Shown one piece after another: positions 12,150 to 53,822 of a DNA stretch of 64,000 bases. Positions within the stretch are counted from its first letter, which is position 1; the number at the start of each line of letters is the position of its first letter. Both the position numbers and the translations under genes were made by a program. Source of the DNA: Eledone cirrhosa (taxonomy: Eukaryota); assembly GCA_964016885.1 (NCBI GenBank), contig OZ024758.1:310001-374000 (forward strand), read 5' to 3'. The notes beneath the pieces are model-generated. The model was not told the DNA's origin and made no database searches. It was given only the letters and a program-made list of their open reading frames with translations.

Positions 12150-12197
<48 letters not shown>

Positions 12198-12836: not shown

Positions 12837-14841
12837 ATCCACACTTGCTCCTTGTGGCTTCTGATGCAGACATCATGTCCGCCATCAGGTCCTTCCCAGC
12901 TAGCAGCTGCGGAGATGTTGATGGTCTCTGACCAGGCCTCCTCAAGGAGTTGATATCTCCCCTCTCCGCTGAGGCCGGGCGCCGCCTTCTGGGTGCAATT
13001 GTGGCGCTCACCAATAGGCTCATCCATGGCGCCCTGGACTCTTATGCTCGAGGCCTCTTTTTTTCGGCCAGCCTCACCGCTCTCAGGAAGAAAGAGGATG
13101 GCATACGCCCCATTGCTGTGGGCAATGTCTTCCGGAGGCTGGCTGCCAAGGTAATCTGCAAGTCCGTAACACTCGGAACCGGCATCCAGGGCCTCCAGCC
13201 ACCTCATTGTCAAGTTTGACATGAGGAAGGCCTTCAACTCTTTACGCTGGGATCATCTGCTCGAGGCCTGCCTCAGCCGAGCCCCCTCTGCCTACCTGTC
13301 ATATGGAGCCCCAAGCATGCGCCATGCTGCTGATACGGTCATACCCTTGGCTACTGGGATCCAACAGGGCAACCCTTTGGGACCCCTCCTGTTCACCCTT
13401 GGTATTGACCACATCGCCCGGAGTATAACGGCCTCTCTCAACGTTTGGTATCTGGATGATGCTAGTTTGGGTGGGCCCGTACAGGCGGTCTGCCATGACC
13501 TTCAATCGGTGGTTCCTGCCCTGGCGGGAATCGACCTCCAGGTCAACTCAGCCAAGTCGGAGGTGGTGAATGTCAGCCTCGATGCTGCAAGCTTTGCAGT
13601 CTCCGTCTTGGACGTGCGGTCCATTCTCCGCCAGGTTCAGGTGACCCCCAAAGAGGATGCCCTCACCGATCCACCCGCCGGCTATCCGCTCCTCCATCAA
13701 GTCCAGACTATCACGAGCCGACTGGGCTTGATTGATGGCCACCCAGTTCTCTTTCTGCTGAGGAACTGCTACGCCATGCCGAAGCTCCTCTATACACTCT
13801 GTGCTACACCTAAACTTGTATCCGAGCAGCAGCCGATGAGATATGCAACTTTACCTGTCAGGTATGGCGGCCTTCGCCTCCAGTCCCCGATCTCACTAGC
13901 TTTGCCGGCATATCTTTCGTCGGTAACCTCGTACCACGTCCTCCTCAGCAGGGTTCTTCAAAACACAACAGAACCCTCTGTGTTCAGAGAACGCGTGGCC
14001 GCCTGTGAGACGTGGGACCGGCTGGGACTTAGCCCAGTAGACATTCCTCCTCCTTCTCCCCCTGTTGACGTCAAGTCCCCCCCAACACACTTGGGATGCC
14101 ATCCAGTGCAGCCTGGCCTCAGACAGGCTCACGCGCCAGCTCGACCAGCACCGCCTTGTTTGTTTTCGTGCAGCCTCCAAACCCCACAGTGGGGCCTGGC
14201 TCCATGCCCTGCCCTCCTTCTCCACTCGCACGCAGCTAGACAACAATAGCTTGCGCATCGGCGTTTCCCTGAGGCTCGGCCTCACACCAATGTCGCTGCC
14301 GTTCCAAAATGGACTCTTTCGGCCTCCACCCGCTTTCCTGTCGCCACAGTGCCAGCCGCAATCCACGCCATGCTGCCCTCAACGAAGTCATTAAGCATAG
14401 CTTGGACGCTGCAGGCTTCCCTTCCCAGCTCGAGGGGACGGCAAAAGGCTAGATGGCATGGCCATCTTCCCGTTCCGCGGTGGCAAACCCCTCGTCTGGG
14501 ATGCCACTTGCACCGACACTTTCTGCAGCCGCAACCTGGTGCAGTCTGCGACTGGCCCAGGTTCTGCTGCACGTCAGGCTGAGGGGGCCAAACTCCTCAC
14601 ATATCGTTCACTCTCCGACAGGTTTGCGGTCGTACCCCTGGAAGTGGAGACTTCTGGTGTCCTCGGCCCCAGGGCTACCTCCTTACTCACCACCATAGGC
14701 GCTGAGCTGGCCAGCCGCAGGTGTGAGCCCCGCGAGTTGGAGTGGCTTTTCCAGCGCGTGTCCCTTGCCGTGCTCCGGGGAAACGCCTTCTCCATTCTGT
14801 CCGCCGGGGCTGTGGGTGGGCCCCATCGCGTACCGTTATGA
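12837..14841 (+). mobile_element. CRE-clade retrotransposon, duplicate of 3885-5889
   Basis: Same motifs and same frameshifts at offset 8952. Confidence 0.85.
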
Positions 14842-16563
14842 ATGTATACAAAACAACTAAATCTCTTAAATAACTTCACTTATATCCAAAACATGATTTG
14901 TATATACATCAACAGTGACTCATTATTATACGCCAGTCACGACCCCACTGCAAACACGATATCTATATAACAACCCCACCGTAAAACTACTCTTCCCCAC
15001 TTTACAAACACTTTATATTATTTGTCATTAAGGTTTCTTAAAATAAATATATATACGTATGTGTAGTAATTAGTACAGGGACGAGTGTGTCTTGGTGGAG
15101 GGCACATGGGACCAGCAAAGTCCTAAAAGTAGAGACCAGTAAATGAGATAAGGTCGTAGCTATGTTAAGAATATACATAAGAAACATGTTCTAAACATTT
15201 AAGAAATAATTATTTACCTCTTTCATGTCGGTAATATAGCGGTGTTATAAAACTAATTATAACGACCGGTGTTAAAATAGAGAGAGATAGACAGATAAAT
15301 GTGTGTCACACTCTCACCCTCTCTTTAAATCTTTTACACTATCTAACTCGTACTTCTCACACTCTCTTTAAATCTTTTACTCTATCTACCTCTCATTTCT
15401 ATCTGTGTATGTATGTATGTATCTGTCTATGTGTAACTCGGTGTACTGGAGCAATATGAAGTGAAGTGTCTTGCTGAAGAAGACATTTTGTGGAGTTATA
15501 TCATCGTTTCTTGTTATAAAGCTACTTATACTACCGGCGTAACAGTGGCTATAGGTGATAGATGTAGAAATAAAAGGCTGTAACAGCGATATAAATATAG
15601 ATGAAATAGTTTACCACGAGACTAAGAATGAATGTTTAATGGAATTAAGTGTAATCTAATAGGAAATAAGAGGCTAGAGCAGCGAAATGTTTACGTAAAA
15701 TAAAAGAACAACAAACAAGAGTGCAACATTGAAATTTTTTTTTTTTGTCGATATAAGCGTTATTTTATGCGCGATTTGCCTTGCTGCCGGCGCTGCTCAG
15801 TCAGTAGCAGCCCCGCTTACGAAGTTCAGGAGCCAACCACTTTACATGGTTCGAATCTCACCCTCTCCGCTCTTGTCGAGTTATCTCCCACTCTTTTTAC
15901 TTAGTTCCAGGTCATTAAAATAGAGCAAAGAGGGCGCGGCGATCGGCATATGCACTGGCTACAATGTTGAACTTTGGTACTGACTGCGTAGTTGAACGTT
16001 CCATATACCAACCGCCCAACTGGCCAGTCAACCGCATATGCGGCTGGCTGGCCGGTTGGGTAGTTGGCATATGTACTGGCTACCATGCTGAACATTGTAC
16101 TGACTGTCAAGTTGAACGTTCTAACCCTCTCTTTACATCTATTACTCTATCTACCGCTTATTTCTCCCCCTCTCTTTACTTCTATAACTCTATCTCCCAC
16201 TCTCTTTACATCTATTACAGTGTCTCCCTGTATATATATACACGTATATATGCACTAGATTTTATAAGAAATCTACGTAATAATATAATTAACAATAGTT
16301 GATGAATTAGACCAGAGTTAATTAAACAATAAATATGAATGAAATAGCAGTAGATGGCGAAACTTGAGTGTTGTGTGTGCATACATATATATGAGGTAAA
16401 CTGGTTCAAATACTGTCAGGATTATATTGGATCAAAGACTGTATTAAATAGAAAGTAAAAAATGAAGTGAAAATATAAAAACAAACTGAAAATTTCCCCA
16501 TCCCTAGAAAAATTCATATCTTGTTATATATAGATAATTGGCGCTTTAAATTGAATAAATATC

Positions 16564-16601
<38 letters not shown>

Positions 16602-16666
16602 ACACTGATATATATGTGTGTATATATATATGTGTATATGTGTACATATGTATGTGTATATATATA

Positions 16667-16697
<31 letters not shown>

Positions 16698-17168
16698 CAA
16701 CTTCATCATACGTCCGCTTTTTCATGCTTGCAAGGGTGGGATGGGAGCTGATTCTGGATTGGTTTCTACAGCTGGGTGCCCTTCCTGACGCCAACCGTAT
16801 TTGCAGTGAGTGCTGGGTGCTTTTTTTTTCCGTGGCACCTCCACGTCAGCTTTACAGTGTGGGCTGGGTGCTTTTTTGCCGTGGTGCCTCCGCGACCACT
16901 TTGCGGTGGGGTGGTGGGGTGGTATGTGTATACCCAGCCCATTGTCATTTCCCAACCAGAAAAGCTTATAGCCTCGTTCTTTACCCACGATGAATGTAGC
17001 AGACCCACCCCTCCACCTGGTCTCTTGAATACAACAAACATCGACCTCCTTACGTTCAAGCATTTCTACAACCTCGTTAGAGCCACCCTATAAGGTGCCT
17101 ACATTAATGGTACCAACTCTGAAGTTTTGGATTGCGGGTGAATTTGAGGTGAATTTGTCTTTATGTAT

Positions 17169-22482: not shown

Positions 22483-23141
22483 CTATATTCTTGCATTTTT
22501 AGAAAATCCAAAATTATTAAATGTTTCATTTTTATTTGTGGTACAACTGTTAGTGTTGCTGTTGGTACCATCAGTATTATTTCCACAATCACTATTATTG
22601 TGAGTCGGTTCAAGAAATGAAACATTGGATGTCCTGTTTGGTGTATTTTGTAAATTTCCGAAGTCATAAAACAGTTCATTTGTTTCATCATTGGGCAATG
22701 TATCAATATGAGAGTTTAAAGGTAAATCAGCAAGTACCAGAGGTTCACCAATCATAGGACTATGGTAAGATGGTTGACTTATATTTGACATGTGGGCAAC
22801 TTTTATGGAGTTGGGTTTTGGGATCTGGTTATTCAAGCAATACATAGGAATAGTTGAATGGCTATACTCATTATTTTTGAAGTTAAATCTTCCAACTTCT
22901 GTTTGCCTAACGAGTGAATTGTTAAAATAACCAGCTGGATACACAATGGGATTAGGAATGTTGATGTATTGTCTAGGTTGACAAAATAGTTGTGTTTGTG
23001 GTCTAACCTGTGCAATATGTCTATGAACTGAAAACTCCTTCATTTGGTGTATAGGTATTGTATATGGGTGCATTTGCATCTGTAGTCCCTGATTTACTTC
23101 ATTTTTCTTACTGAAATTGTCATTAACCACAGGAAATAAAC
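22483..23141 (-). CDS. SOHLH2: SOHLH2-like exon 11 (terminal, Asn/Gln/Pro-rich)
   Basis: Acceptor ATTAAAG|GT, long open frame, TAG stop at 22485-22483. Confidence 0.75.
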
Positions 23142-26100
23142 CTTTAATTTAAAATAAAACAAAGTATATTAAATGGAGTAATTTACAATTTGATTGGCAT
23201 TAGGTAGGGCATCCAACCGTAGAAACCTAGCCAGAAACAGTTCTATATAAATAAGGCATGGTCACCTGACCCAACTTACTTCAAATGGGATGACCCATCT
23301 AACACATTCCAGTGTGGAAAATGGACGTTAAACGATGATGCTGATCCACTCTAATAAACTCTTGATTTCTCTTTCTAGCATATAACTAATGTGTATTTTA
23401 TTACTAAACATGACTTGAACTTAAAAGCTCTAAAATATCGAAAAAAAATGGCTGACCAAGGTACTCTCATGGAATGACAAAATGAGGTTTATTTTTCAAC
23501 ATAGTCCCTGGAAAGAAACAATGCAATGACTAATAAGAGTTGAAATTATTGCATGCAAGATTTCACAGCTCTCGCGTCACTCCTTCATTGCCAGCCTATG
23601 GACTTTTCAGTCGAACCTTGTATTAAGTGAAGTCCATAGGCACTTCATAAGCTGATCGAGATACTCTCATGGAATGACCAAATGAGTTTTATTTTTCAAC
23701 ATAGTTCACAGAAAAAGAAAATGCATCTATTAATAAGAAGAGTTGAAATTATTGCATACAAGATTACACAACTTTAGCATCACTCCTTCATATTCAGCCT
23801 ATGAACTTTTCAAACAACCCTCCTTTTGCTGTAGCTGATCAGAATTCTCTCACCTTTTTCTGTTCAAATTAGCTGTAACCAGCTGGTCATACTGATGTTA
23901 AGGTATTGTTCTCAAAATAAATAATTGTTTCTACTTTTAGCACGTAAATAATATCAAAATCACATTGATTTGATATTATGTGAGATAATTATGCGAGATA
24001 ATTATGTGAGGTAAGCCTTTGCCGTGAAAATATAGTAGTAAATATAGAGTATTGTAAATGCTAAAGGGTTAAGAGAAATCTGAGGTAGTGTGCTGGAGAG
24101 AATACCGTGTTGGTATTGACATTTAATCTGCATGGATATTGATCATTGAGTGAAGAGGTGCCAGGAAATACCAATGGGAGGAAGCTGCAGCAGAGAAAGA
24201 CCAAGAAAAACCTGGGAAGAGGTGGTGAGAACTGACCTCAAATCGCTGAGACTCACAGCAGACCGACGAAGGAACACGACAAGTGGAGAGATACTGTGTT
24301 GAGAAGGACCCGTCTAACCAATGTAAGCATGGAAAAACGGGTGTAAGTACGACGATGATGATGATGACAAGAAACCAATAAAGCTCAGAGGTCTCCATAT
24401 TATCATTTCTATCCAAGTTTTTGAAAAAGTTTACATTCTACAGGGCAGACTGACATTTAGTGCTCTGGAGTTGATCAAATAAATACCAGACAATTATCAA
24501 AGATTGTTTCAGTAGGCTCTACCATGCCCTTACACATTTTTTGTCAGGAGCAAATATATGATAATTATTTAATTGTAGTTTGTTTGAAGCATTGTATATG
24601 ATATATATAATGTGGAAAGAGATAGAAGGGTAAACAATGCAAAATTGACTGTAAGATGAGGTAACTAAAAAGTAAGTTACCTGGTAATCTTTGTTTGTTT
24701 TTTGGTGTTGCTGTTCTTTCTTCTCTTCTATTATTTCGAGACCTAAAAATCCTTTCTTAGAAGAGCAACATCAAAAAACAAAAAGATTACCAGGTAACTC
24801 TCAATTTTGCATTGTTTAGCCTTCTATCTCTTTCCACATTACATAAGATAATTATTCTTACTAAAAATGGTGTCTTTATTTAAGTATTTGTTGTACTTAC
24901 TGAACTCTGGATGAAACACATTACTTTGTAACGGTCTTGAATCTGTTGAGACGGTTGTAGTCATTCGGCTAGGAGTAGAATATTCCTTGAAGTTATTCCT
25001 ATTTTCAATAAGTGTTATTTCATCATCAGTTGTAGGTCTTGTCATTTCCAAGCGAAGTTCTTTATTTGTTGTGTATTGTAGTAGTTGTTGTGAGTCTGAA
25101 AATGTTGAATGTCTTACTAAACTATACTATGAATATAACTGGAAGAAATTTAACTATAAAACAATGAAAATAATAGAATACAAAAACAAACAATAAAAAC
25201 AACAAATGATAATGAATTCATTTGATGAATTACAAAATACAATGTTTACATGACAAAAAGTGCCCAGTCCACACTGTAAGGTGGTCGTGCTGGTGACACA
25301 ACACAAAGCATTTCGTTCACTCTGTAAGGGGATCATTTTGGTGCTATGATAAAAAGCACCCATTCCACACTGCGACATGGTTGGTGTTTAGGAAGGGCAC
25401 CAGCTGCAGAAACCAAGTCAAAACGATGTTTCCTTTGGCTTTTCCAATAGCTGATACTATCTTCTAGTCAAAATTCCTGAACATATCATATCACCCTATC
25501 TGGGAATTAAACTCGCAACCTCACGAATGTGAATCCAAATCTCTAGCCACTTAGCCATGTACCTTCATGAATTTATGAATACCATCTTAATAATGAAATA
25601 ATTATCTTTAGTAAATCCATTCAAATTCTTCATTAATTCAAATATGGTCTGGTCCATTGGAAATATGGCTCGGTTCGTTAAAAATATGGCACGGCCTGTT
25701 AGAAATATTATACGGCCCATTATAAATAAGTTATGGTCCATTAGAAATCTGGTATGGTCCATTAGAAATATGGTACGGTCCATTAAAAATATGACTATGA
25801 AAGGGTTTAACGGAGATTAAACTGGATCAATTTCTTGTTGCATTCTGCAAGCTTGTGGGATGATTTGAGCTCAGCACTGCAAATTAACAACTGTACACTT
25901 TACTACTGCAACAATCAATAAGTTGCACCACTTGCATGGATTTCTGTGACTCTCACCAATCAATTTTATTTTATTGTTCATCATATTCAGGAAGTCAGAG
26001 GGATTGCAGTTTATGTTATCACAAATCTGCTTGATATAGGTCTTGGCTTGTGGTCTTCTGCTAGCTCTCTCTTGTGTAGTTCCCTACTGTAACATCTTTA

Positions 26101-29100
26101 TAACATACTTTGCAATTAAGGTCTTCAGTGCCGTAGACAAGATAACCCCTCCTAACATGTTTGAACTCTTTTCCAACAGTTCATAACTTCAAAGCTAGAT
26201 GCGGGTTACTAGTTTACTGATGTGGTGTTTGTCAATCATTCAGATATGTATTGTTAATAAATGTTTGTTTAAAAAAATAGTCATTTTACTGAAAAAGAAA
26301 CAACCCAGGAGAGGACCTGTAGCTGTGTAAAATATATGTGGCAGTCAACTGGTTAAAGATTAAGTACTTATGCCCATAGGATGGAAGCAGAGTTGGTGAC
26401 AAGAAAAAAACTGAAGAAGTTTCATCTGTTAAGGTGTCTCTATATAGGAAATGATTATTCAATCAAATGCCAATAACCAGATATATTATCTAAAAATATT
26501 ATATACATGAGGATCAGTTGAAAAGTTAATAGGCTGAGCAAGACGCTCTCATGGAATGACCAAATGAGGCTTATTTTTCAACATCCTCACTGGAAAGAAA
26601 CAAGACAGTTATTAATAAAACGAGTTGAAATTAATGCATACAAGATTTCACAGCTCTAGCATCACTCCTTCATAGTCGGCCAATGAACTTTTCACTCCAC
26701 CCTTGTAGAACACTACACAATACATCATATAGATGAACATTACAAGCTTAATTAGTAAGGGGCTCACCATTTGACTCTAGGGATCCAGTGCTTTCATTTA
26801 CATCCATTTTGTGACTAGGTCTCTTGGTCTGTGTTGTAGTAACAACATTTGCAGAAGAATTTTGTACATTACATACACTACTTAAGAGATGTTGAACTGG
26901 TCCTTTTTGGCTGGAAATATGAGAATAAGAGAAATTTGGTAAGTGATAAAAGATAAGAATAACGGTTTCTTATTTAGAAACAAAGTCACAGATTTAACCC
27001 CAGCTATGAAGTGTCTGTACATTGGTCAAGGTTTAAACCTTTAGCATTTACATTACTCTATATTTACTTGTGTATTTTCATGGTAAACACATTATCTCAC
27101 ATAATATCGAATCTACGAGATTTTGATATTTATTTTGAGAACAATATCTTAACATAAGTATGAACAGTGGGTTTAAACAGAAAAAGGTGAGAGGATTCTG
27201 GCCGGATAGGGCTGTTTTAAATGCTAAAGGGTTAAAGAAGGAATTTCTATCATGAATCTAATATGAGCTTGAGCTGTACTTACTCTTAGAATGAAGTTCA
27301 GCTGAAAAGTTCATAGGCTAATTATGAAGGTGATGCTAGATCTGCAAAATCTTGCATGCATTCATTTAAGAATCTGTTTTGGTGGAATCATCACACGATT
27401 GTTGCAAGATACAAACTGGTAAATTTCAAAAATGCTATCCATTCGCAAGTGACCTTTACAGAATAGGTCTTACTAAAATTTAAGTGCAATAAAATAAAAG
27501 CAAAAGAGAAATGAAAATTAAAAAAATACCATATTTCAGAAACTAGAGTTTGTTTATCTGATGAACAATCTTGACCTTCCTCTCTGTTTGTATTTCTATT
27601 ATTTGAAACAGGAATTGGTGCTTCTATGATGGGTATTATCTTTGAGTGATGATATTTCATTGCTTGTTCCTTCAATTCATATTCTTTGCTAAGAATATCC
27701 TTGATCTACAATAAAAAATAAACAGCAGTTACTGTAAAATGAGTCAAACACCACTAACACTAAGTCTGTGTTTACCAAGTGTAATCAGGTTCACATAACT
27801 TCCATAAGTTACAGGACAGTTATAATTCATTTATGTAAAAACTACAACAGTTTTATAGAATTCATTAATATTTTGTTGGCTTAGCTTGTTGGAATTTTCT
27901 GGATATGCCATCTACAATAAATACAACAAACTAGCATCATAGCATATGGAAAATTTACCATATATACTCAAATATAAGCTGAGGAATATGTGATAAAAAA
28001 GAAAAAAGATGGTAAAAATGGAGGGGTCAGCTTATATACACCATCTAAACAATGTGTTGATTAGCTGCCTCAGCTTATAAATGGGGTTTGGATTTTTGCC
28101 ATTTCTCAGACAAAATAGGGGTTAGCTTATATTCGAATTGCCTTATATTTGGATCAGCTTTTATTCAAGTATATATGGTATCTCTTAGAATTTCATGAGC
28201 CTAAAGTTGCTATTTTATGGATCCCTACAATTAGTTGCATAATTGAAGGAAACTTGTGTCAGCTAGAAATAAAAATTGGGTTGGGATTTTACATTCTATC
28301 TGGAGCTAATGTTTGTTCTACCTCAAATATAAACAGTTACATACATTTTCCATAAGTGATGAATGCATTGATATTACTTTAATGGCATTAGCATCATAGA
28401 AGTAACCTAGTCTATTGACAGAGTTCTTGCAGTCTTACTCTAATGGCATCCAATTGCTATTCTAGTAAAGTCATCAATGTAACAGTAATATATTGGAGTT
28501 GGTCAATTGACTGCTTGCTGCTATTTCTACTTACTCATCATCATCATCATCATCATCGATACCATCAATTAGCTGCTGTCTACTACTTCTTATTGAAGAC
28601 TGTCATTTTTGTTTATGTTAAACATATGTGGTGCCACAGTTGAGGAGGGAAATGGGTATCAAAACAAGAACAATGAACATGACTAATATGAAAGAAGCTG
28701 AAGTCCTACCAACCTCAATTTTCACACATGTTATTCTAATGAGAAGGTTTACTTGGCCAGAGTGGCTTTATTTATTTATTTAATCAATTTAAATGTCTGC
28801 ATAGAGGTAGTAAGCCATGACAGATTAGGGAAAATATCTAGTACTAAAAACAAGATAGGCTTAACCCTGAAGCATCTAAACCACCCGTATCTGGCTAGAA
28901 TTTCCTCATCTCTTTCTGCTCATAAATGGCTGTAAATGGCTACTCCTACTGATGTTAAGGTATTGTTCCCAAAATAAGTAATATCAAAATCTTGTAGATT
29001 CGATATGTGAGGTAAAGCCTTTACTGTGAAAATACAATAGTAAATATAGAGTAATGTAAATGCTAAATGGTTAATGAATCATATCCTAATAAGCTGTGAC

Positions 29101-32100
29101 ATTAGCAGATTGTCTGAGACCTTCGTCAATATTCAGTTAAGAAACAAACAATCAGTGTAAAACTAATGAAAAACAATAAAAAAACCCAAATATATTTAGT
29201 TTTACCTGAGACTGTAAATCATTTGGTATGATATCATTAACTATCTTCAGGTAATTAACAACAAACTCTAAAATTGATGCCATATCCGTTTTCCTGCCTC
29301 TCACATATGGTAAAAGTACCCTTAACTGACAACAGCTTTCTTTGATGCGCTCTCTAGAAATAGAATAAATTTATACATGTTAACAATTACTGACCATCAT
29401 CATCATCACCCTCATCATCACAACAATGAAAGATAAAGATGAGATCCTATTGATTCAACTATCCTGACTATCTCATGAAAGGTAAAGATCAAAGATAACT
29501 TACAATTCAAGACTGTTACGCTCAACTTACCGACGTAACTTTTCCTTGGCTGAATGATTACTTAAATTTGAAATGTTTGAAGGTTTCAATTGACTAGAGA
29601 ATTTAGTTGTACATGGTTGACCTTCTATCGCAGCAGACTGCTCTAATTCAGGAAATTGGGGTTTAATTACTTCAATGTCATCAACACTGGAGAGAAATCA
29701 GAAAGCGAAATTAACATTTTTTAGCAGTCACATATGCTGGGGGTATATGCAGACCCCTCCCTCACAACCAAACAACATTTTAATGAGTCACCTCCATGCT
29801 CACTAATTATTCAAAATGTTGAGCAGAAAGTGAAAATAAGTTGAAAATCAATGTTGCTATGGTACACCAACTCTGCTTTTTAACTTGCTTTTCAATCTCA
29901 ATGTCCAGACACATACATTCTGTATGCATCAGCTAGGGCTTCATACAAGTCTTCTTTTGAAGGCATAGGGAAATCCCCCTTGTCTTTTGGAAAATTTAGC
30001 TATGTCCCCTTCCTCTTTAACATTCCATGATAAAGTCATTAAGCAAGGAGGCACTATCCTTTGTGAATGAGGTGCTATCTTTTATGAGATTCTTCTCCAT
30101 TAGCTGGCTAAAGATGAGTCGTTTCATTTGACTCAAAACTTTTGCAAAAGATGGAATGTTATTTTTAGTGCTGTCGTGAATGTTCATTTTATTCCCATTA
30201 AAATGAATATTTCCAACAGTATTTCTCTGTCTAGATATCTGATATTTCTTTTTCATTTCATTTGAAAATAAATAAAACTAAGCAACACAGTTTTTGCTGA
30301 TGTATCTGAGAATTGTTTTCAACTAAATTACAGATGGTGAACCCCTGAATTGTATTGGATTCTCCATATGTTAATGTTTTGTTTTGCAAACTACTCCCAG
30401 TTTTAATCACCATAAAGTACTAGATTAAAATATCACTGACCACCACTAATAATAGTACACCATTATCATTTTTACATCCATTTTTCCACGCTTGCATGGG
30501 TTGGATGGGTCATTTTCAGCACCGTGTTCCTTTGTCATCTTTGTGTCTCTCAGCAATTTGAGATCAGCTCTTACGACCTCTGCCCAGGTTTTTCTTGGTC
30601 TACCTCTAATGTGGCTTCTTTCGATTGGGATTTCCTGGCATTTCTTCACCCAATGATCATCATTCATGCACTTCACATGCACAACAGTCTTCTCGCTTGC
30701 ACACCACCTCAGATTCTTAAAAAATGAATCTATTATTTTGTATATTTTGACTGCAGATCTCCAAATTGTGACACGAGTCCTATGAGATGGAATGGATAAT
30801 ACAGCAGGTATCACTGGCTGGTTTTTGGGGATATGCTTTTGCCATTTTGTATGCGGTATAAACCAAGACAAGATATCTTATTTCATGTTACTCCAGTTCA
30901 CTCTGCTGTAGAAATTGTGATGTCACTGGTGCCAAACTGTATTGGCCATTGCCTTTATCCTGGACAATATTGGTGGTGTAGGGAGAGGAGACATGTATGT
31001 AAGAGTGACTGCTGGTCTTCCACAATTAACCTTGCCCATATTTGTGTCTCAAAGGGGAAGTTTCCAGGTGCAAATTCCATGGCCATTCTTGGTTAAAGGT
31101 GGGGTCTAAATATAGCGAAGACAAACTGCTTGTACTGTATTTATATTTGAAAAAGCAATCAGAGTAAGAAACTATTTTCCTTCATTCCTTAATAACTTGA
31201 CCATTTTACTTCTAATGTGTAGAATAGTGTTAGCAACAAAATATAATTACCCGACTAGATTATTTGTAGAACTCACTGCCCCAGAAATATTACCATTTGA
31301 GCAAGTATCTTCAGTCACTTGTTTAGCTTTAAAGAAAAAAAATAGTAATATTAAAATCATCTAATACTATATAAATAAAATGAGAAAAGAGAAAAGAAAC
31401 CATTATTATCATATAGCTTTAGTTAAGCTATATAAATAATAAAGTTGATAAATAGTGATTTGTTAGATTATTATTTAATGAAGAATTGAAGGTGCATGGC
31501 TTTGTGTTTAAGGTATTCAGATCACAATCGTAAGGTCGTGAGTTCGAGTCCCGGTGGCGCATTGTATCCTTGAGCAAGACACTTTATTTCACGTTGCTCC
31601 ATTCCACTCAGTTGTACCTGTAATTTAAAGGAAAAGCCATGTCACATTCGGTGTCATGCTGAATCTCCCAGAGAACTACGTTAAGGGGTACACGTGTCTG
31701 TGGAATGCTTAGCCACTTGCATGTTAATTTCACGGATCAATTGGAACACTTGTCGCCATAACCAAAAAATTACCTTCCTCCTTCCTTCCTCATATAATGA
31801 ACAATAAACTTTGGGAAACATAAGGGGAATCAACTTCAGAGTCCAGATTATATTACTAGGAACTTCTGTATAACTTTTCTGCCACACTGTTACATATTAA
31901 GCCCACAGTGAATGGTCGCAGTTAACAGAATATCTAATGACAGTTCACCCTTATAAGTTCACAGGTAATGCTCTACAATTATAATTTTGGGTTTTAACAC
32001 AATTGTGTATAACGCACACATTATTTTGAAGAAAGGGTTTGAGGAAAAATTTAACAGTATTTTAAAGATATTACAAACATTTAATATGATATTAAAAAAA

Positions 32101-35100
32101 AAATGTTGCAAGCATTTAGACCAAGCCTCCGGTTTGAGGATAACTTCCTACTTTACTCCCACCAGTCCCAGAGGCACTAAAAAAAGAGAGGTGCATGAGT
32201 GCTATCCTTTCCCCTTTGACTAAACCATGAAAACAATGCATGTGATCTAATTAATTGATGGATAATCATCTGAGAGTTGACAAATGTTCATATCCTTCAC
32301 TACTGAGAGTATGTGGTGAAAGACATTTATCTTTAGTTCACTTTCAGAATCAGTGCTAACTCAGTAAATTTGACAAGTGTTGAGTTCCATTTAGCCTGAA
32401 TTTGCACCCCTGCTTAATCAGTATATGAAACTGGAGACAGGGTTTGTACAGAGAGAGAGAAAGATATATAAAATCCCAACCACGGTGTCAAGTGGTTTCG
32501 GCTTGTGTGTTCAGCAAGCCTTTTGAAAGATGAGTCAGCCCTGCAGACTCTCATATATATATATATCATCATCATCATCATTTTATGTCTGCTTTTCCCT
32601 GCTTACAAGGGTGGGACGGGAACTGATTCTGGCTTGATTTCTACAGCTGGATGCCCTTCCTAACATCAACCTCATTTACAGTGAGTGCTGGGTGCTTTTT
32701 TTCCGTGGCGCCTACACGACCTCTTTACAGTATGGGCTGGGTGCTTTTTTGCCGTGGCACCTCCATGACAACTTTGCAGTTTCTAGAGCTGAGTAAACTG
32801 GAGCAATGTGAAATAAAGTGTCTTGCTCAAAGAAACAACACATCACCCGGTCTGAGAATTGAACTCACAACCTTTCGATTGCAAGCCCAATGCTCTAACC
32901 ACTAAGCCATGTGCCTCCATTTATATATATTATATTATATTATATTATATTATATTATATATATGTATATATATATTATATGTATAATACACACACAGCT
33001 AACCTTGATTCAGTTGAACAGTAGTCAATCTGGTGTATATATTTTGGACAATGTTCTTAGTGACTGGCTGAACAATCAGTTCATCAATACCATGGGGTAG
33101 AAGATCAACTGAAAGAAAGTAAATAACCATATATGGTAATTAATTGATCAATTAATTGGTGTCTAAAATAAATTAACAGAAAAGAGAATGACAATTTCCT
33201 AACTAGGAACCACACTTTCTATTTCTTGTGGGAACTGGTCAATTCCTTTTTGTTTATATAACAATATGATTTATATGAATTAAGGCAGTGAATTGGCAGT
33301 ATCAGTAGAGGGTTGGACATCATGCTTTCTAGCATAGTTACGTCCATTTACGGTCTGAGTTCAAATCCCGCCGAGGTTAGCTTTGCCTTTCATCCTTACG
33401 GAGTCGATAAAATAAAGTACCAGTAATGCACTGGGTAATTGCTGGCCTTGTGCCTAAAGTAGAAACAAATATGATTTATATGAATTATTTTCTTTGTTGA
33501 CGTGCAGTGACTTGCTCCCTGCCTCAATTCTTGTCACTTCATCCACAAACTTAGACTCTGCTGCCTACAAAGCAGAGGAGAGGAAGATAGTCAAATATCG
33601 GCTCCTGGCTTCCCCTTTGCACTCGTGTCTGTTAAAATCTCTGGCATCCTGGGTCCTCACACTGCTGATTTCCTCTGTAAAGTCGAAAAGATGACAGCCC
33701 ACTTGAAGAGGGAGCTCCATGAGGTGGGGTGGCTGTTGTAGTGAGGGTCTCTGGCCATACTTCGCAGTAACGATTTTGCTGTTTTGTTTGCAGGGTGTGG
33801 CTGAGGCACCGCTCAGACTGGAGGGGAGTGATTATCCACCTACTTCTTACACTGCTTCATTCTTTTTTCTTTTTCTTTTCTTTTCTTAATTTTCTGTTTC
33901 CTTTAGTAGTTTGTTTTGTTTTTATAAGTATGTATTGTTTAGTTTCAATTATATATAATTTCCTACATCAAAATAATTGTATTTATTGATTTTCTAATGC
34001 AAGCACATATGACATACTCATTCATCATCATCACCGTTTTACGTCCGTTCTTCCATGCTAGCATGGGTTAGACGGGTTGTCCTGTGGTGGGCAGTGTCTG
34101 GTCGGCTAACCATGCCTTGCTCATACAGGAACTGATTTTGGCTTGATTTCTACAGCTGGATGCCCTTCCTAACACCAACCTCATTTACAGTGAGTGCTTG
34201 GTGCTTTTTTTCCGTGGCACCTACACGTCCACTTTACAGTGTGGGCTGGGTGCTTTTTTGCCATGTCACCTCCACGACCACTTTGCAGTGGGAGGGTGTG
34301 GGGCATATTGTCTATATGCTTCAGCTTGTACCCATGGGAGGTCGGGTACTCTGTATTACTGCGTGACGCCAGAGGTCACTGTCGTGTGTCATCGCCTTTG
34401 AGAGGTGTAATTGGGTAAGGTCGGCTTTTATCACCTCATCCCAGGTCTTCTTGGGTCTCCCCACTCCGCGGTCTCCATTGACTTCTAGTGCTCTGCACCT
34501 TTTTATGCAGCTGTCATCCTTCATACGCATCACATGTCCATACCAACGCAACTGCCTCTCCTGCACACAGCATTTGATTCCTCTTATGCTCAGTCTCTCT
34601 CTCAATTCATTTATGCTTTGCCGTTCGCGTATATTACTATTACACATCCATCGGAGCATGCAGGCTTCGTTTCTTTCTAATCTACGTAAGTCTTCCACCT
34701 TCAGCGCCCAGGTCTCACTACCATGTAACATTTGTATACATGCATCATACAGTCTGCCTTTCATTTTGAGGGAAAAGCCTTTTGCAGCTAGCATTTCCCT
34801 GAACTTCTTCCATCCCGTTCTTACCCTAGTTATTGTACTTTCTGAACACCCACCTCCACTGCTAATTCGGTCACCTAGGTAGCAGAAGCTGTCTACTGTT
34901 TCTACAGAGCCCTCCCAGAGATTGGTGGTACTTGTTTCCTGTGGCTGTTTGCTGTCTCAGCACAGCTGCTACATGTGAAGCCTACATTCTTAATTAAGCT
35001 TCCTGAGATCCCGCTACATCTCTTGTGTACCCATTGTTTGCATTTGGGGCAGAGAATGGAGTTCCTACCTACACCTTTCCTACATACTGAGCAAGGCCAT

Positions 35101-38100
35101 TTCCCTGAGGGGATCTGGGTTCTGTTTTCTAGTCTACTTACAAGGACCTTAGTCTTTGTCAGGTTGACTTTGAGACCCTTTCTTTCTAGTCCCTGCTTCC
35201 AAGTTTGGAATTTCTTCTCTAGTTCTACCATAGATTCAGCTATAAGTGCGAGGTCATCTGCATACAGGAGTTCCCATGGGCATCCGGTCTTAAACTCCTC
35301 CGTTATTGCCTGCAGGACTATGATGAACAGGAGAGGGCTAAGAACAGAGCCCTGGTGGACAACTCATTATATATAGTAATTTAGAATATCTTTTCAACTG
35401 TATATAATTACTTCTACTTTTGGATCAAGGCCAGTAATTTGAAGGGAAAGGGAATGTCAATCAAATCAACACCAGTGCATCACTGGTACTTTATTTTATT
35501 GACCCTCAAAGGAAGAAAGGCAAAGCTAACCTCAGGGGGATTTGAACTTTGAATGTAACACCATTTTTCAGAAGACAATCTAGTGTTTAACAGTATTATT
35601 GAAATTTCTCCCAGTTGAAGCACTTGAATTTCCCTCTTTCCACAAACCAATAGATTAAAAAAACTGAGAACAAAAAGCAATAAGTAATCGTCATCTGGTA
35701 ACACATTTAATGTCCAATTAACTCAAAACTAAGATTTAGTATTTGTGATTTAAACACTAAAAATATCTACAATTGATGCTATGTAGCATTACATTTAATG
35801 ACTAATGAAATCTTAATGAATGTTTGGGTTAGTGATATTACTGAGTTATATAGTGAGAACAATCACATTAATCTTAATTTTGATTATCAAATAACAATAG
35901 CAAAGGGTGTTGGGCTTTAGCCCAGTATTCATGACTGAAAAAATAATCATCTTTCAGTTATTGTATTGAAAATTTTATTAAACGGAGAAGCTATGTCCAA
36001 CATAAGTAACAATCAAAAGACAAGGAATTGAACATTCATAGTTGCCTTTCAGTAGCGAAATGGCAGTTATTAAGGACTGTAAGCATGCATGATACTGTAG
36101 ACCCCGAGGAAGTTATAGGGGCACTGTATTGACATACGTTTCTTGGGAATTTTAAAAAACATGGCTGATTCTTTCTCCTCCCCAGGTCTGAATACAGCAG
36201 ATTTCTCCCAAAAGATGATGGAGAGTGAAAGAATGGAAGTAAGAAAGAGAAATAGAAGAAGAATCGACCCCAGTACTAGACTGGTACTTTCTTTTTATTT
36301 ATCTCGAATGAACGAAAGGCAAAGTTGACCTCAGTGAGTTTTGAACTCAGAAAGCAGGGAGCTCAAATGGATACTGCAAAATATTCTAACCGACGTTCTA
36401 ATGACTGCCAATTACAAGGGAAGGACAGTTACAGCCAAAGGGCTTTCAATAAGGCAACAATACAGAGGTAGTCACAGCCATTCAATTAGATATATAAAGT
36501 AAGAAAACTTACCATTAATTTGAAGTTGTGAAACCCAAATAATAGCTGTCTTCTTGTTATATTTACTGAAATGTCTAAACAAAAATACATTCTATAACAA
36601 ATGAAATTATAAATATAAAATAAAATAAAAAAAAAAATTTCTACACATACTCAAGAAAATTCTTGCCTATGGGGGACACTAATTAATTATACCAATACAG
36701 TAATACAATACTATTTATATAAGCAAAATGATGTTGGACTTTATAACAGTTTCTGAAAAAAACAATGAAATAATTTTTAATAAATTTATTAAGAAAGGTA
36801 CTAAAATTCTTTTTTATCTCAAAATGTTCTTATGAAACCAGGAGTCATCTCATACGAAAAGGTGTCCAATAGGCCAGAAAATACGGAATATATTTCTTTA
36901 AGTCTCACAACCAACGCTTTCATTTTTGTTGAAACATGGCTTTAGTAAATTCTCTACAATAGAAGTTATATTTATAATGGACATTTTCTTGGTTTATTTT
37001 CTTTCTTTTACGCTGATACATGGGAAGAATATTTCAAACTAGGACATCAGGGAACAACCAGTCATATAATAATTACCAAAACGTGAAGAAACAAGCTGTA
37101 TATATATATATATATAGATATATATATATAAGGTCATTGCAACAACATCACAGAACAAGCTACTACATAAATAAAACAAAATAAAGTATTAAAATATATA
37201 ATTTTTTTCCAGAACTTACTTAATAGATGTTGTGAGACGAAGTAACTCTTGGTTAATTGGTGGGTTGATTAATAACCAAATCAGACTATAGGTTTGCCTG
37301 TTGCACTTCTCATACGCATTGCTATGTATACACATATGCACTTGATGACCAACAGTGGTATGAACTATAATTTCAGCCAGTGAAGTCCGCCATCTTAAAT
37401 TGCCTACCACCAAGGTATCAGCTGAGCAAATCAGTGTTGGTGGTAATGATGATGAGGTAGTTGACATTGGAGGGCCATCTGAAGGTGCTTGTAGATCAAT
37501 TGTAAATGGTGAGACTGGCGAAAGGGATTGAGCTGAGGGTGCTGTTGGTGGTGAAGCAGAATTATTAAAGCATTCAAGAGATGTAGTCATGGATGCTCCG
37601 GAATCACATAATACTTCTGAACTTGTTCGGATCAAATCTGATGAGGTGTGTAAATCTAGACTTAAGTCTTCTGAGTGTTTTTCAGTGGAAGTGTTTGTTG
37701 AAATAAGGTTGCACTGTTCTGAACCATCTGGAGTTCTGAGACTGGAAGTGACACCAGTAAATTTCTTTTCATCATCATCGTTGACCTAAATGAGAAGAGA
37801 TTTAATAAGTGGCTTCAAATTACAATCAAGAAAACATCGTTACATTAATAACAGTGAAAATTAATTTCACATAAATTTATATTTATCAAGAGAGAGTATT
37901 AAAATTTACATGATATATATTTACATAGAAAAAAAAAGATATAAATATTATCAGAATAGTTAAATCATAGTACTATGTTTAATAGAATACCTATCAACTT
38001 TAATAGTAAACCATACTAACATATAGTGCTGCTTTCAGTTAGGTTTGATACATTGTTGACAGCTGTCTTGGACAGTAACACCACCACCAGCAAATTACAT

Positions 38101-40099: not shown

Positions 40100-42776
40100 C
40101 TAGAAATATTTAATTCTTGGTCTTTCTTATTTGTCGTACTCAAAGATTGACTTATCTCGGAGGGTTCTCCCAGAAAATGACCGTATATAAGCTGGATATT
40201 AAGGGTGACGGATATTTGGTTGCTATTTCCGTCAATCAAACAGGCCGAAAAACCATAAAAGCCATGCCACGCTAGTAGCTAAACGCAAAGCGGAAGTGCA
40301 AAGAAAGCCAAATTGTTAGGCGTCAAGCCCAAAATGATATGAATTACAGGAATACATTCAATTCTAAGTAAAATCTAAGGAGGCGTTTCATTTTTGTATT
40401 TGTTTTGCAAATTTTTTCATCTGAAAAGGTGTGTTGAAACAGATATTGTTATACTGGGAGTTCACAAAAAAAAGAACAAAAAACAAGATGGTGTAAGACA
40501 CAACAAAAAATTATAGAAGTTGTGTTGTTATGGCCAATGAGAGAAATGTACCATGTGCCCAGTTATAGAGGCTTTTCTGTTTGGCCTGACGATATCGTTA
40601 TTAATGATGTATTTGCAACGGGTTCGTTAATCTTTGACTAAAACATGTGGTCGCTAAGCTAACCTTTTAACCATACATCTGTGTCCACTGAATTATATTA
40701 TGTGTCCCTAAAATATTAAACTCAACTCAAATAATCTAAATCTTGACTAAATATTGCACCCCCTCCCCTATAACAGTCTCACATGAATCTTTACTTGCAC
40801 ACTCGACCTGCTAGAAATTACTGTTAAATCCACCGACTGTCTGACTGTCTTGAATGAATACATTTAATATAGTAAGCCTGGATATAATCTAGGGTGGCCA
40901 TACCGGATTGTCTTCGATCACACCTGATATAAGGCTAAATAATAGATTGCGGCATTTATGATTTTACTAAAGTATAAGCAGCTAAGTAAGGCTAAAAATA
41001 TAAAAATATTCAACGAAGAATTGAAACCATTTCGCTCTTTTAGCTTGTCCTGAGTTTACGTTTTTCCCTACGGTACCCATTATACTTTTATATAAATCTC
41101 TTCAGTAAAAATGCCATACGAACTTGAAGGGGACAAGCATTTTAACCTGTAAAAATTGCAAATATTTCTTTAGCAGCAGGTGTGAAAAGCAAAACTTACA
41201 AAATGCCAATAATGTTTATTGTCTAAAACAAACAAAAATTAAGTTCCTACAATATATACGATTAAAAATATATATATAATATTCTCTGCACTTGCTTTAT
41301 ACATGTATTAATATTGAAATATGCTGTACCGTTGTTCTTAAGTGAAAGAGACTTAGCACCTACCACTTCGAATCCACAAGAAATATCACCAATATCCATG
41401 GAAAAAACTGTCTTTTAGAAAGTCAGGTTTTACGTATAAGTAACTGCGAATTACATTTGAAAGACAGTGAAAAAAGAAGCCACAGGACTAAAGTATTTGT
41501 TGAAGTACAATTCTATGTATCATGTGGTTATTTTCTGCGGAATTATTTTGAAAGGAAGAAGTTGTTCGATTATGTTTAATTTCCTTTAATTAAGCAACAT
41601 TGCCAAGTTTTTAATATATACTGCAATATAATATTTTGTAAATAATTTAAACAATTTTACAACCTAAAAAAGAGAAATATAATCATTTTTGTTTTCAGAT
41701 GGTGAAGAAGTTATCTGCGGGTGTAATACTGAGAAAAGAAAAGTGACTAGTCAGAAAACTAACTTGGGTCAAGTGATCGAATCTCTCTGGTGTATTACTG
41801 GTATTTAATTTACAGTGCAACTACTAATTGTTCTCAAGACACATTAATACAGTGGAACCTCGGTTCACGACCGCCTCTCATCACGGACAATAATACGGTG
41901 TTTACGATGCTAATTAGGGTATTGGATCTTGAAACTAGTTGTTCATTAGATCTGTACAATTCCCGTCATATATTTAGAGAGAGTGTATAATAAACCTGGC
42001 ATGAAATTCTGCTGCATTTGGATCAGTTCAAAGCCTTTGTTAAGATCGACTAGAAGTATTTGTCTGTAGTTCTCAGTACAGCTGGTTTTAGTCCCCTCTT
42101 TTTCAAAGTTGGATTGCATTAATACGACTGTGGCTTTGAACAGGTTGAATACCCTCTATATTCTTCTGATTTGGCCACATCTGACAATCATCTGTTACAC
42201 AACCTGAAAAACACTTGTCTGGGAACCAATATCACAGTGATGACGTAACATCTACCATTGATGATTTTTTGGGGCCAGCAGGATGAAAGCTTCTTCACCA
42301 ATGGGATCCAAGCAATGCAACACTGTTGAAAAATATACCTCATTTGGTCACATTCCATGAGAGTATCTTGGTCAACCTATGAACTTTTCTGCCAACTCTC
42401 GTATACAGCGGCACTGGGGTCGGTTAATCAGCTTGCCCCTCTCCCAAATTGCCGGCCTTATGCCTATAGTAGAAATCAGTATTATGTCGTATAAGATTAG
42501 TAGTACCGTTACAGAGTCGGACAACATGCTATGCAGCACCGAGTTAGGGCCCTTTACGTTATGAGTTCAAAGCCTGCGAAGGTTAGCTTTGCCTTTCATC
42601 CTTTCGCGGTCGATAAAATAAAGTACCAGTAACGCACTGGGGTCGATTTAATCGACGTTCTCCTTCCCTTCAAATTGCTGGCCTTGTGTCAAATGTAGAA
42701 ACTTTATTACTGCCATTTCATAATTATTTTTTCTCTGACTTATTTTACATTGTTTCTCTCTCGTCCTCTCCCTCTT

Positions 42777-49786: not shown

Positions 49787-52700
49787 ACAGTCAACGCGAT
49801 CAGTCGCGTGGGAGACTATTTATTAAATTTAAGATGAATACTATCTCCGACAGTAATGCCAAAACTACAGCCATATTGAATAACTGGTTATTCTTCTAAC
49901 TATATCTTCTGAAGACAGCTTTTATTCGAATTCGTAGAGATATCCGACTAAATACATAATTCATTTTACAAGGATTTGCTACAAACAGCATGGCTGAACA
50001 CAACATCAACAACAAAATTAAGGAAGTATCGAAGACAAACAACGAGAAAGGTAAACAAACTTTATTCAGTTGTAGCTACAGAAGAAACCGAAATTATAAA
50101 TCGCATTTCTCTTGGAGTTGCGAACTTAATGATGATTTATTTAATTGTTATAAAATGGCAAAAAACAATCCCTCCATTGGCTATATGAACAGAATGAAAC
50201 TACACTGGGACGAAATGTACCCAGAGCTAAATTATTTTACAGCGAAACAATTACGCCAACAAGCGACGTTTGTTGAGCGTAAAAATAAGATAAATATTAT
50301 TAATTGTAAGTCTGTAACAACAAACATGGGATCAACAACGCGTGCTACAGGTCGCCATGCTACTAGACTTCCTAGCAGCGAGGTCGAACAATGCCTTGAG
50401 ACAACTATGCCTGTAAGAAACTTGACACCACCTGTACCGTCTAAGTCTACTTCGACTGTTGAGGAAAATACTATCGATAATGATAATAATCAAAAGTATA
50501 AACAATTGAAAATTTCCCTCAACGAAATCTTCCAGAGAGAAATTAATTCATGTATAAATATCTCTCTTGCTGAACGTATTAAAACGACAATATTTAATAA
50601 AAAAAAACAAATAATGAAATATTACGTGTTATTGACGAAATAGGGAATGAATATTTATGACGGATAAAAACCCCAACATTTTGGAAAATCAACGCCTGTT
50701 TATATGCCTTAGCAACCGACAGTGAAGCATTATCTTGGTGATAGCAGAGATATTAACAAGAACAAAACACCACCAAAAATACCATCATATATAACTAAAA
50801 TAGAAAAAAAGATTGCTGATCTACGAAAAACCATAGGATATGTGACAATGCTCCTTACATGCAAACAAACACAAAAAAACCTCACTTCTCACCAACAAAG
50901 AGTGAAAAATAAAATAGAGACGATGTTTGGTAACAGTAGAAGCAGAACTCTTCAATATAAGCAGATCACCCTCAAACAAGAATTGAGAGCTGTTAGCGAA
51001 AAACGCCGATACCTGAAGAAGGTAGATGAGAGAAAAGTGCTTAGTAAAAGATTCAGACGAAACCAAACATCAGTCTATAGAGATATGAAGAACAAAATAA
51101 TAAGTGTCACTAAGGCCCCATCCCAGAAAGACATAGGTTCCTTTTGGAGCAAAATATGGGGTGAAAAGAAGAATTTCAACCAAGATGCAGTGTGGCTAAA
51201 AGAAATCCGAAAGAACTATTGCTCCTACACTACAACAAAAACATACGAAATAAGTGAGGGTACCCTTGAGACTGTGATAGGAAAACTCCAAGATAAGAAA
51301 ACACCAGGAAGAGACATGATTGTCGGCTACTGGTACAAAAAACTGATATTCTATCGGAGGTATCTTACTGACCTCTACCAACAAGTTCTTAAGGGAGATA
51401 CACTTATACCAGAATGGTTGACATTAGCACAAACATTACTGGTCCCCAAGAACAAAGACACCCACTTGGCAAAAAAATACCGACCCATTGCATGTCAGAA
51501 CCTGATGTATAAGATGTATACAGCCTGCCTGAACCCATTCCTCCAAGATCACTGTGAAAATAATAACATCATCACAGATGAACAAGCAACTGGAAAGAAA
51601 GGGGTTTGGGGATGTGCTAAACAACTCCTAATCAACAAAACTGCGATGTCGGAGGTGCGACAACTTAGGAGGAATATGGCTACAGTCTGGCTGGACTACA
51701 GGAAAGCTTTCGATTCTGTTCCCCACTCTTGGATGATAGAGGCTCTCCAACTTGCTAAAGTCCCAGACATTATTATCAGAGCCATAGAGAAGCTGTCTTC
51801 TTCTTGGTCTACTATCCTAAGGTTAAAGACAGAGAGGGAGGACTCTATTTTCACTGATAAAATAAAATATTGCAGGGGTATATTTCAGGGAGACAGTCTC
51901 TCTGTGATATTATTCATCCTGTCATTAAACCCCTTGTCCTTTCTGCTCAAGAAATGTGAAGGATACATCATTGGCTCACAGGGGGACAGAAATACGAACC
52001 TAACCCATATTTTCTTTGTGGATGATCTAAAACTCTATGCCAAGAACATGGATGGGATGATGAAATATCTTGACCTGGTTACAACGTTCTCAAAGGATAT
52101 AGGAATGGAGTTTGGCCAAGATAAATGCTCATATATGACTGTAAAGCGGGGAAAAACAACAACCCAATCTAGCAACATTGTCATCAATGGCCTAACTGTT
52201 TCACCGATATCTGATGAGGACTGCTACAGATACCTGGGGATAGATGAGAACATATCCTATAATGGTATCTGTAATAAGGAACGCGTAACTAAGGAATACT
52301 ACACCCGATTAAGAAAGATTTGGTCATCGGAACTCTCTGCGCAAAACAAAACCGTGGCTCACAATGTGTTTGCTGTGCGTGTCCTAACACTAACGTTTGG
52401 AATACTCAATTGGACGATAGACGAAATCCGAGCAGTTGATGTTGGAACTCGAAAAATACTAAACAACACCGGAAACTTCCACATCAACAGTGACATAAAC
52501 CGCCTTTCCTTGAAATTTAAGCAGGTAGGCAGAAGCCTAACATCAGTCCAGACAGCATTTGAATGTCGTATCATATCCCTCCGACAACATCTACGAACCT
52601 CGAAGCATAGGAGCCCGTCTCTCGAGCAAGTCTATCTGCATGAAACAGATAAGATCATGAGAGTTGGGAAGGAACTCCTCGAGAGATATTCCCTGTGTGA

Positions 52701-53822
52701 TAATAAAAAACTCACACCCTGGAAAGTCGCTCAGCAGTATCGCAGTGAACCCATGGATGAAAAACTGCATGCTTATCAGCAAAAAATCATGCATGGATAT
52801 GTTGCCTGGAAGCTCCAGAGTGAGAGTAATATAGATAAGGAAAGTAGTGTATCTTGGACCAACAACCGCTACATTGGCTCCCACTTTGAAGGATACGCTT
52901 TTGCAATCCAAGAACAGGAAATTAACACGAAATACCTGATTCACAAAAGAGATAGGGATGCAGGCAAAACACCTAGATGTGATAACAAGTGCAGACTCTG
53001 CAGAACTAACATTGAAGATATCACCCATGTCATCAGCAGCTGTCCAAAGATGTCATCGCGGTACGATCTACTATGAGGCATGATGTAGTGGCCAAAACAT
53101 TGTACAATGCAATCCGTAAAAAAGATAGCCCCGATAATAAACACATTAAAAGCTACAGTAATGTGGAAGACATCCATGTACATAATATGAAAGAGTACTG
53201 GTGGAATGTTCCAGTAAAAACCCCAATAAAATGCAGGCATAACAGACCAAATATTATGATATGGGATATGGATAAGAAAGCATGCACAGTAGTGGAAATT
53301 AGCTGCCCAGCAGATGCCAATATAATATCAAAGATTAGTGAAAAGGAGAATATTTATGCAGAACTGATGAGAAATCTGCAGATACTCCACCCGGATTACA
53401 CCTTCAGATTTATGCCCGTGATTATTGGGGCACTGGGGTATGTTAGTAACTGCCTCAATACAAATCTTGAGAAGCTAGGCTTCACAGGAACAGAAAGAAC
53501 ACAACTAGTTAGGAAATTACAAGTACAATCCATTAATGGAACAGTAAAAATATGTAAAAAATTCCATGAATTCTGCATCTAATAACTGCATATACACATG
53601 TACAAATACAAAGCATATACACATGCACGCATACAACTCAAAACATCCACATCCACACATACAATAACATCAATATCTATACATGCATTCATGCTGACAT
53701 AATCTACCTAGTTGCTGTTGTGTAAATTCCAATGAGAGAGTCTTGTGTCTAAGTTAGAAACCGACTCTCTCTCTATTGGGAAAAAATTGGGAAAAAATTT
53801 GTGAAATTATAAAACCAGAAGA
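49787..53822 (+). mobile_element. Near full-length R4/Dong-clade RLE non-LTR retrotransposon
   Basis: RT, CCHC and RLE ORF segments, flanked by ACATACATAC at 49777-49786 and 53823-53832. Confidence 0.85.
49990..53582 (+). pseudogene. Disrupted R4/Dong polyprotein (ORFs 49990-50643, 50722-53076, 53073-53582)
   Basis: KYRPIAC, WLDYRKAFDSVPHSW, GIFQGDSLS, FFVDDLKLY, YRYLG; CRLC....EDITHVISSC; RHD..HNRPNI.IWD..VVEISCP..KENIY..PVIIGALG. Frameshifts and a stop lie near 50600-50720 and at 53073. Confidence 0.88.

Follow-up and report, generated by a model that had tools for sequence, protein, structure and literature searches.

Fungal Skn7, the plant type-B ARR proteins and bacterial OmpR/NarL are response-regulator transcription factors, in which a receiver (REC) domain is joined to a DNA-binding domain. 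In plant PRR/TOC1, cyanobacterial KaiA and FrzS the REC fold is kept without its phosphorylation site (phospho-site), and these pseudo-receivers serve as interaction modules. A REC-like domain is also present in animals, namely at the N-terminus of PDE8A/B. Here we describe a predicted pseudo-receiver in Sohlh, a germ-line transcription factor with a basic helix-loop-helix (bHLH) domain, whose gene lies within a stretch of 64,000 nucleotides from Eledone cirrhosa (assembly GCA_964016885.1, contig OZ024758.1, positions 310,001 to 374,000; hereafter the window). The explanation that in our judgement probably fits the observations best is that Sohlh carries a dead receiver fold which descends from a holozoan REC-REC-bHLH regulator and would now act as a docking module. 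Like the pseudo-receivers above, the Sohlh domain combines the REC fold with a missing phospho-site; unlike them, it belongs to an animal transcription factor, and an intact counterpart can be traced.

Mouse SOHLH1 and SOHLH2 form homo- and heterodimers and are required for spermatogonial differentiation (10.1101/2021.06.17.448807), and germ-cell expression of Sohlh has been published for oyster, limpet and mouse (PMC5381572; PMC6529535; 10.1101/2021.06.17.448807). The oyster orthologue XP_011419198 is a gonad-expressed member of the published SOHLH family (PMC5381572; PMC6529535). The accessible parts of these two accounts describe only the bHLH and mention neither the REC domain nor its intact unicellular counterpart. 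In the supplement of Bao et al. 2017 (PMC5381572) the Monosiga protein XP_001748279 is listed among the SOHLH candidates as row 'Mbre_SOHLH', and a figure page is labelled 'Pre-metazoan'; the main text, as far as it is accessible, names neither that label nor the Monosiga protein, and the word 'receiver' does not occur in the accessible text and supplement. In the literature searched, no paper links SOHLH either to a receiver domain or to choanoflagellates, subscription papers, figures, TED and InterPro lying outside this search, so that the domain may already be classified there. With this scope, the Sohlh REC domain and its likely ancestry in a unicellular response regulator appear to be new, as neither was found in print. 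The bHLH of the window gene belongs to a 15-row clade (support 99/94) that also contains SOHLH2-type proteins of marmoset, lamprey and cnidarians, the same clade that holds SOHLH1/SOHLH2 and the invertebrate Sohlh proteins, and marmoset and lamprey SOHLH2 possess the same N-terminal domain as the window gene.

The Sohlh gene is located on the minus strand (41399-22483) and comprises 11 exons encoding 773 amino acids; it is intact, with no internal stop and with AG/GT ends at every splice site of the model. The exon junctions are predicted from splice signals and from the colinear order of annotated proteins of octopus, oyster and snail. The nearest relatives are annotated Octopus proteins, with 53% identity to that of Octopus bimaculoides across residues 1-732. 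Exons 2-4 (37785-37220, 36574-36513 and 33108-33004) encode a domain of 122 amino acids (residues 135-256) N-terminal to the bHLH. An initial annotation of this DNA had proposed that these exons are spliced in one frame, which is borne out by their AG/GT ends, the compatible phases (2, 1 and 1) and the stop-free joined peptide. According to splice signals and alignment, exon 2 harbors a Ser/Thr-rich N-terminal part followed by β1 to α3 of the REC domain (from position 37419), and its REC part is single copy in the genome containing the window (3.0 Gb). Exon 3 contributes the α3-β4 loop and β4, and exon 4 a short α4, β5 and α5. A tryptophan at 36535-36537, within β4 and two residues before the Thr/Ser site, is unusual, as Gly or Ala occupies this place in most Sohlh rows.

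This domain almost certainly adopts the receiver (CheY-like) fold as predicted by modelling. The fold had already been claimed in the initial annotation and is supported by profile search, by AlphaFold and by two structure searches. The spliced domain of the window reaches 99.9 bits on a profile made from 11 mollusc domains other than those of octopuses. A profile of 160 ordinary RECs gives 38.7 bits, a score favoured by the selection of these RECs for their likeness to the mollusc profile, compared to 0.2 bits for the reversed sequence and at most 6.8 bits across 1000 shuffles. Among PDB sequences a 14-row mollusc profile finds 18 matches at E <=10, the top six of which are receiver-bearing chains (best E 1.8e-5). 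The structure models were made from the O. bimaculoides and marmoset domains, the window domain itself being covered by the profile score. AlphaFold, run on the O. bimaculoides domain together with 32 further animal rows but no canonical REC, yields a (β/α)5 model with a mean predicted local distance difference test score (pLDDT) of 93.8. With this model Foldseek retrieves 286 chains at E <=0.001 (best E 1.7e-6), the first being the GacS receiver with a template modelling (TM) score of 0.82. VIA-align superimposes the model on REC structures with Z 16.2 and a root-mean-square deviation (rmsd) of 2.3 for 120 aligned residues, the FrzS receiver reaching Z 14.9. The model of the marmoset SOHLH2 domain (pLDDT 87.6) aligns to REC structures with Z 14.6 and rmsd 1.9 over 107 residues. 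In the ESM Atlas, REC clusters were found at 0.86, below the 0.9 mark, and serve as a lead only. Searching for homologues of the oyster domain returned oysters only, and the prediction of a two-copy complex of the O. bimaculoides domain, in which the alignment was not used, gave a score of 0.01 and no verdict.

The plain HMMER comparison with PF00072 that had been proposed as a check gave no match for single animal proteins, and in the Pfam scans PF00072 (Response_reg) exceeded its curated cut-off in no animal Sohlh row; this failure explains why the Sohlh REC domain is unannotated. The Pfam family PDE8A_N matches true RECs alongside the REC family but no Sohlh row, although PDE8A/B and Sohlh have in common that a REC-like domain occurs in an animal protein. 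An entry released in 2026-03 as 'uncharacterized Rossmann fold protein from Homo sapiens' (PDB code 28tm_A, 113 residues) superimposes on the REC model with Z 13.9. Its identity with SOHLH2 was considered and rejected, the marmoset model finding no high-identity chain. Since both PDE8 and 28tm are REC-like, Sohlh is not the sole instance of the REC fold in animals.

The loss of the phospho-site, likewise claimed in the initial annotation, is evident from the alignment, and the residues named there are correct. G140-N141 (37399-37404) replace the acidic Mg-binding pair, L183 (37273-37275) the phospho-acceptor Asp and Q235 (33070-33068), placed by the gene model and a spacing count, the Lys, while S216 (36531-36529) at the Thr/Ser site and the subsequent P236 of exon 4 are kept. 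The pattern that the initial annotation gave for human SOHLH2 holds in marmoset, with Lys at the Asp site and Glu at the Lys site. The full set of phospho-site residues is found in none of 14 animal rows, in all 12 REC2 and two of 11 REC1 domains of the unicellular proteins described below, and in 36 of 36 other RECs. The window Sohlh receiver thus lacks the acidic pair, the Asp and the Lys and, judged by these residues, is predicted to be incapable of taking up phosphate. That it is still phosphorylated, by acetyl-phosphate or by an unknown kinase, is hardly credible. Asp is indeed retained in Hydra, Hydractinia, Nematostella and one further row (Glu in lamprey), and S216 is kept in the window, but the window domain has Leu at the Asp site and the Lys is absent from 14 of 14 animal rows. 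Moreover, an exon-by-exon search of the octopus's own genome, hence a lower bound, gave no match to the REC, HisKA and Hpt families. This agrees with the census in the accessible part of PMC6324907, according to which histidine kinases number none in animals, one in Monosiga and 11 in Capsaspora, and His-Asp signalling is regarded as absent from animals.

A survey of REC proteins from unicellular holozoans for retention of the Asp had been suggested together with the fold, and it led to proteins in which the site is intact. The mollusc REC profile gave 485 matches among 1.84 billion representatives. The best 150 of these 485 include 12 proteins of non-animal type which possess a bHLH besides REC; they were found with the REC profile alone, and the unicellular bHLH had no part in finding them. 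Two full RECs (REC1 and REC2) precede the bHLH in 11 of the 12, the first REC being cut in the Monosiga model, and P0206 was used in place of its shorter cluster mate P0091. Seven of the 12 are from named choanoflagellates, and one bears the identifier 'Clim', which we take to be Corallochytrium limacisporum. On the whole proteins PF00072 scores 82.7-157.4 bits, above its cut-off, and the UniRef name of the Monosiga protein is 'Response regulatory domain-containing'. REC2 carries the complete phospho-site in all 12 cases, which on sequence makes the unicellular protein a putative functional response regulator. As in Skn7, type-B ARR and OmpR/NarL, REC is thereby combined with a DNA-binding domain; the unicellular protein differs from these in its bHLH output and its two RECs, and the animal form in taking no phosphate. 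The choanoflagellate-type bHLHs form two groups (98/88 and 99/95), one with P0030, P0032, P0063 and P0206 and the other with P0034, P0037, P0038, P0042, P0049 and P0071, which may correspond to two paralogues or else to two lineages of hosts.

It is likely that the Sohlh REC and the unicellular REC2 share common descent and that Sohlh stems from a unicellular response regulator. One feature in common is the spacing between the Thr/Ser and the Lys site, which amounts to 19 residues in 35 of 38 Sohlh rows, 12 of 12 REC2, two of 11 REC1 and none of 161 other RECs; the usual spacing, observed in 135 of these 161, is 22, so that 19 corresponds to a shortening by three residues. A profile built from 33 animal rows gives REC2 a median of 57.3 bits compared to 42.9 for 103 other REC proteins, and six of the 12 REC2 exceed the best of the others. 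The bHLH points in the same direction. With the profile of the unicellular bHLH, Sohlh rows score 40.7-59.5 bits (13 of 15 at >=46.5), while the best bHLHs of the PDB reach 46 (plant MYC2), 44 (Max), 38 (BMAL1), 37 (SREBP and MITF) and 35 bits (USF); the margin is not uniform, as the window's own bHLH with 42 bits ranks under Max.

The highest score on the unicellular bHLH profile, 66.4 bits, is attained by a second gene of the octopus genome (C15, 22768307-22770250, minus strand) of Sohlh/TCFL5 type, which corresponds to the second, TCFL5-like invertebrate 'SOHLH' type in the accessible part of Bao et al. (PMC5381572). This gene and the window gene both have an intron of phase 2 within the bHLH basic region. 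A choanoflagellate bHLH compared to the octopus genome finds the window Sohlh and the C15 gene first, although weakly (E 0.07 and 0.21). In the careful bHLH tree of 67 rows the Sohlh, unicellular and C15 rows are joined with support 89/92. The second exon of the octopod Max was not found within 20 kb.

A number of observations weigh against this descent. A spacing of 19 is likewise seen in PDB entry 3c97, as taken from a profile alignment, and is accordingly rare rather than unique. With a mollusc-only profile, single REC2 domains score 30-44 bits but the best kinase RECs 51. Within the careful tree the bHLH of the unicellular proteins has the C15 paralogue as its closer relative (97/82), and the 80 kb surrounding that gene revealed no REC, a weak test since control matches in the window itself reached only E 0.06 and 0.8. 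In the quick bHLH tree, reduced to 39 rows by dropping 28 of the 67, bHLH-PAS rows lie inside the Sohlh/unicellular/C15 group, and four approximately unbiased (AU) tests on it rejected nothing. The bHLH panel contained a partial Max but no MITF, USF, SREBP, Mlx or other unicellular bHLHs. The REC trees, in which 36 or 25 other RECs were retained, do not put Sohlh next to the unicellular RECs; in the one with 25 the two stand together in 28% of bootstraps, and a tree constrained to this grouping was neither rejected nor demonstrated (p-AU 0.53). With 60-130 columns, the quick bHLH tree and the REC trees did not fix the sister group. The animal pseudo-RECs themselves fall into a single clade (100/99), by which the domain is older than the cnidarian-bilaterian split.

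These points leave room for an independent origin, in which an early animal Sohlh acquired its REC from a hybrid kinase, from a PDE8-like domain or by bacterial transfer, or in which the REC-REC-bHLH of unicellular holozoans arose by convergent fusion or concerns the TCFL5 branch only. The unplaced sister group of the Sohlh REC, the grouping of the unicellular bHLH with the REC-less paralogue and the higher scores of kinase RECs would all fit such an origin. Taken jointly, however, these variants are distinctly improbable, as they have to account for the shared spacing of 19 and for an identical domain order on one small bHLH family, which would require two REC fusions to that family, and an animal clade of Sohlh and C15 is not rejected either (p-AU 0.28).

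Under common descent, most simply a single REC-REC-bHLH gene of holozoans would have been duplicated in early animals. At the unicellular stage a His-Asp relay would phosphorylate REC2, as suggested by its intact site, and thereby gate the bHLH. Animals would then have lost the histidine kinases and REC1, and the site would have decayed stepwise, with the Lys and the acidic pair lost by the level of cnidarians and the Asp in bilaterians. While the TCFL5-type copies would have lost both RECs, Sohlh would have kept the decaying REC2. A bolder and rather doubtful extension takes Sohlh and TCFL5 for the output side that survives from a two-component pathway of holozoans: in choanoflagellates the His-Asp relay would respond to the environment by switching the REC-REC-bHLH factor, which would bring about sexual or gamete differentiation, and animals would have kept the factor at the head of gametogenesis with its dead receiver rewired to a protein input.

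With respect to the present role, the REC domain is found in octopuses, bivalves, gastropods and a chiton, and it is better conserved than its surroundings. Identity to O. bimaculoides is 64% for REC, compared to 55% for the N-terminus, 45% for the linker and 51% for the C-terminus (80% for the bHLH). Across 26 mollusc rows, 30 columns of the REC domain are at least 80% identical, and the mollusc-conserved columns cluster at α3 with the following α3-β4 loop and at α4-β5-α5, the latter being the output face of receivers. The linker between REC and bHLH spans 63-253 residues among the animal rows examined and is therefore too variable for a rigid coupling of the two domains. Together with the drifting pocket, the conserved α3 loop and α4-β5-α5 face and the variable linker favour a tethered docking domain. 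On balance, and by a small measure, we lean towards the Sohlh pseudo-receiver being a phosphorylation-independent docking module for a cofactor or dimer partner. Tethered 70 residues from the bHLH, it would dock via the α3-β4 loop and the α4-β5-α5 face and would thereby tune germ-cell gene activation.

The docking module has to be weighed against a remodelled pocket, one of the options raised in the initial annotation, that would bind a small ligand and turn Sohlh into a ligand-gated factor. Domains of the receiver fold can be repurposed, and in molluscs a Cys of α2 and a Trp of β3 are nearly invariant. The Cys is however also present in 12 of 12 REC2 and 65 of 161 other RECs and thus looks structural, and the old pocket varies freely, with eight different residues (L, Q, K, M, R, S, H and Y) at the Asp site of the 26 mollusc rows and seven at the Lys site. 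Such drift of former active-site residues speaks for a partner rather than for a ligand lodged in the pocket, and ligand gating is very improbable.

A further alternative accepts the same ancestry but regards the domain as a passive relic or as a stability element without regulatory partner. In its favour, and as a point against the docking module, the Sohlh models of Potamilus, Mercenaria and Mactra (P0010, P0182 and P0184) are without REC, as are the TCFL5-type paralogues, and octopus and marmoset domains are only about 16% identical. The three bivalve cases may reflect lineage-specific loss or incomplete models; in the former case the domain may be dispensable. The relic is nevertheless improbable, as the full-length fold is kept in cnidarians, molluscs, lamprey and a primate, and as both the excess of REC identity over the flanks and the conserved mollusc columns described above speak against mere decay. 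Two further database models are fusions, P0013 (Bulinus) of Sohlh with a tubulin polyglutamylase and P0020 (chiton) of Sohlh with C2H2 zinc fingers, and are probably merged models.

If the preferred history and docking role hold, a response-regulator transcription factor entered the animals and decayed in visible steps within a gene needed for mouse fertility, and a concrete output could be named for the one or few choanoflagellate histidine kinases. SOHLH2 would gain a defined, hitherto unannotated domain onto which variants and partners can be mapped. The proposal also bears on a possible origin of germ-line control in environment sensing by single-celled organisms.

The remaining exons of the Sohlh gene are all on the minus strand as well. 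Coding exon 1 (41364-41399) comprises 12 codons including the ATG and was located by tblastn with the N-terminus of O. sinensis; it ends with a GT donor in phase 0. Exon 5 (31251-31326; tblastn and gene model) encodes linker. Exon 6 (29531-29686), from the gene model, comprises the end of the linker and the basic region of the bHLH, the phase-2 intron shared with the C15 paralogue interrupting the codon of the second Arg. Helix 1, loop and helix 2 of the Sohlh-type bHLH follow in exon 7 (29206-29353), which matches PF00010 with E 1.9e-5, has relatives named SOHLH2 and is 84% identical to the O. bimaculoides protein over this segment. Exons 8 (27530-27705), 9 (26768-26910), 10 (24901-25095) and 11 (22483-23141) are derived from tblastn and the gene model, the last one containing a low-complexity C-terminal region and the stop codon.

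Several mobile elements and repeats surround these exons. Intron 3 of Sohlh contains a frameshifted reverse-transcriptase fragment of a long interspersed nuclear element (34018-35360), which is 93.6% identical to 10734-12094; the latter segment belongs to an open reading frame (ORF) of 920 codons with reverse transcriptase and PHD at 9030-11789. The region 288-17136 consists of near-identical repeat blocks of 2-5 kb (97.7-98.6% identity), originating either from a recent tandem duplication or from an assembly artefact. A second element lacking long terminal repeats is represented by a reverse-transcriptase ORF of 787 codons at 50713-53073.

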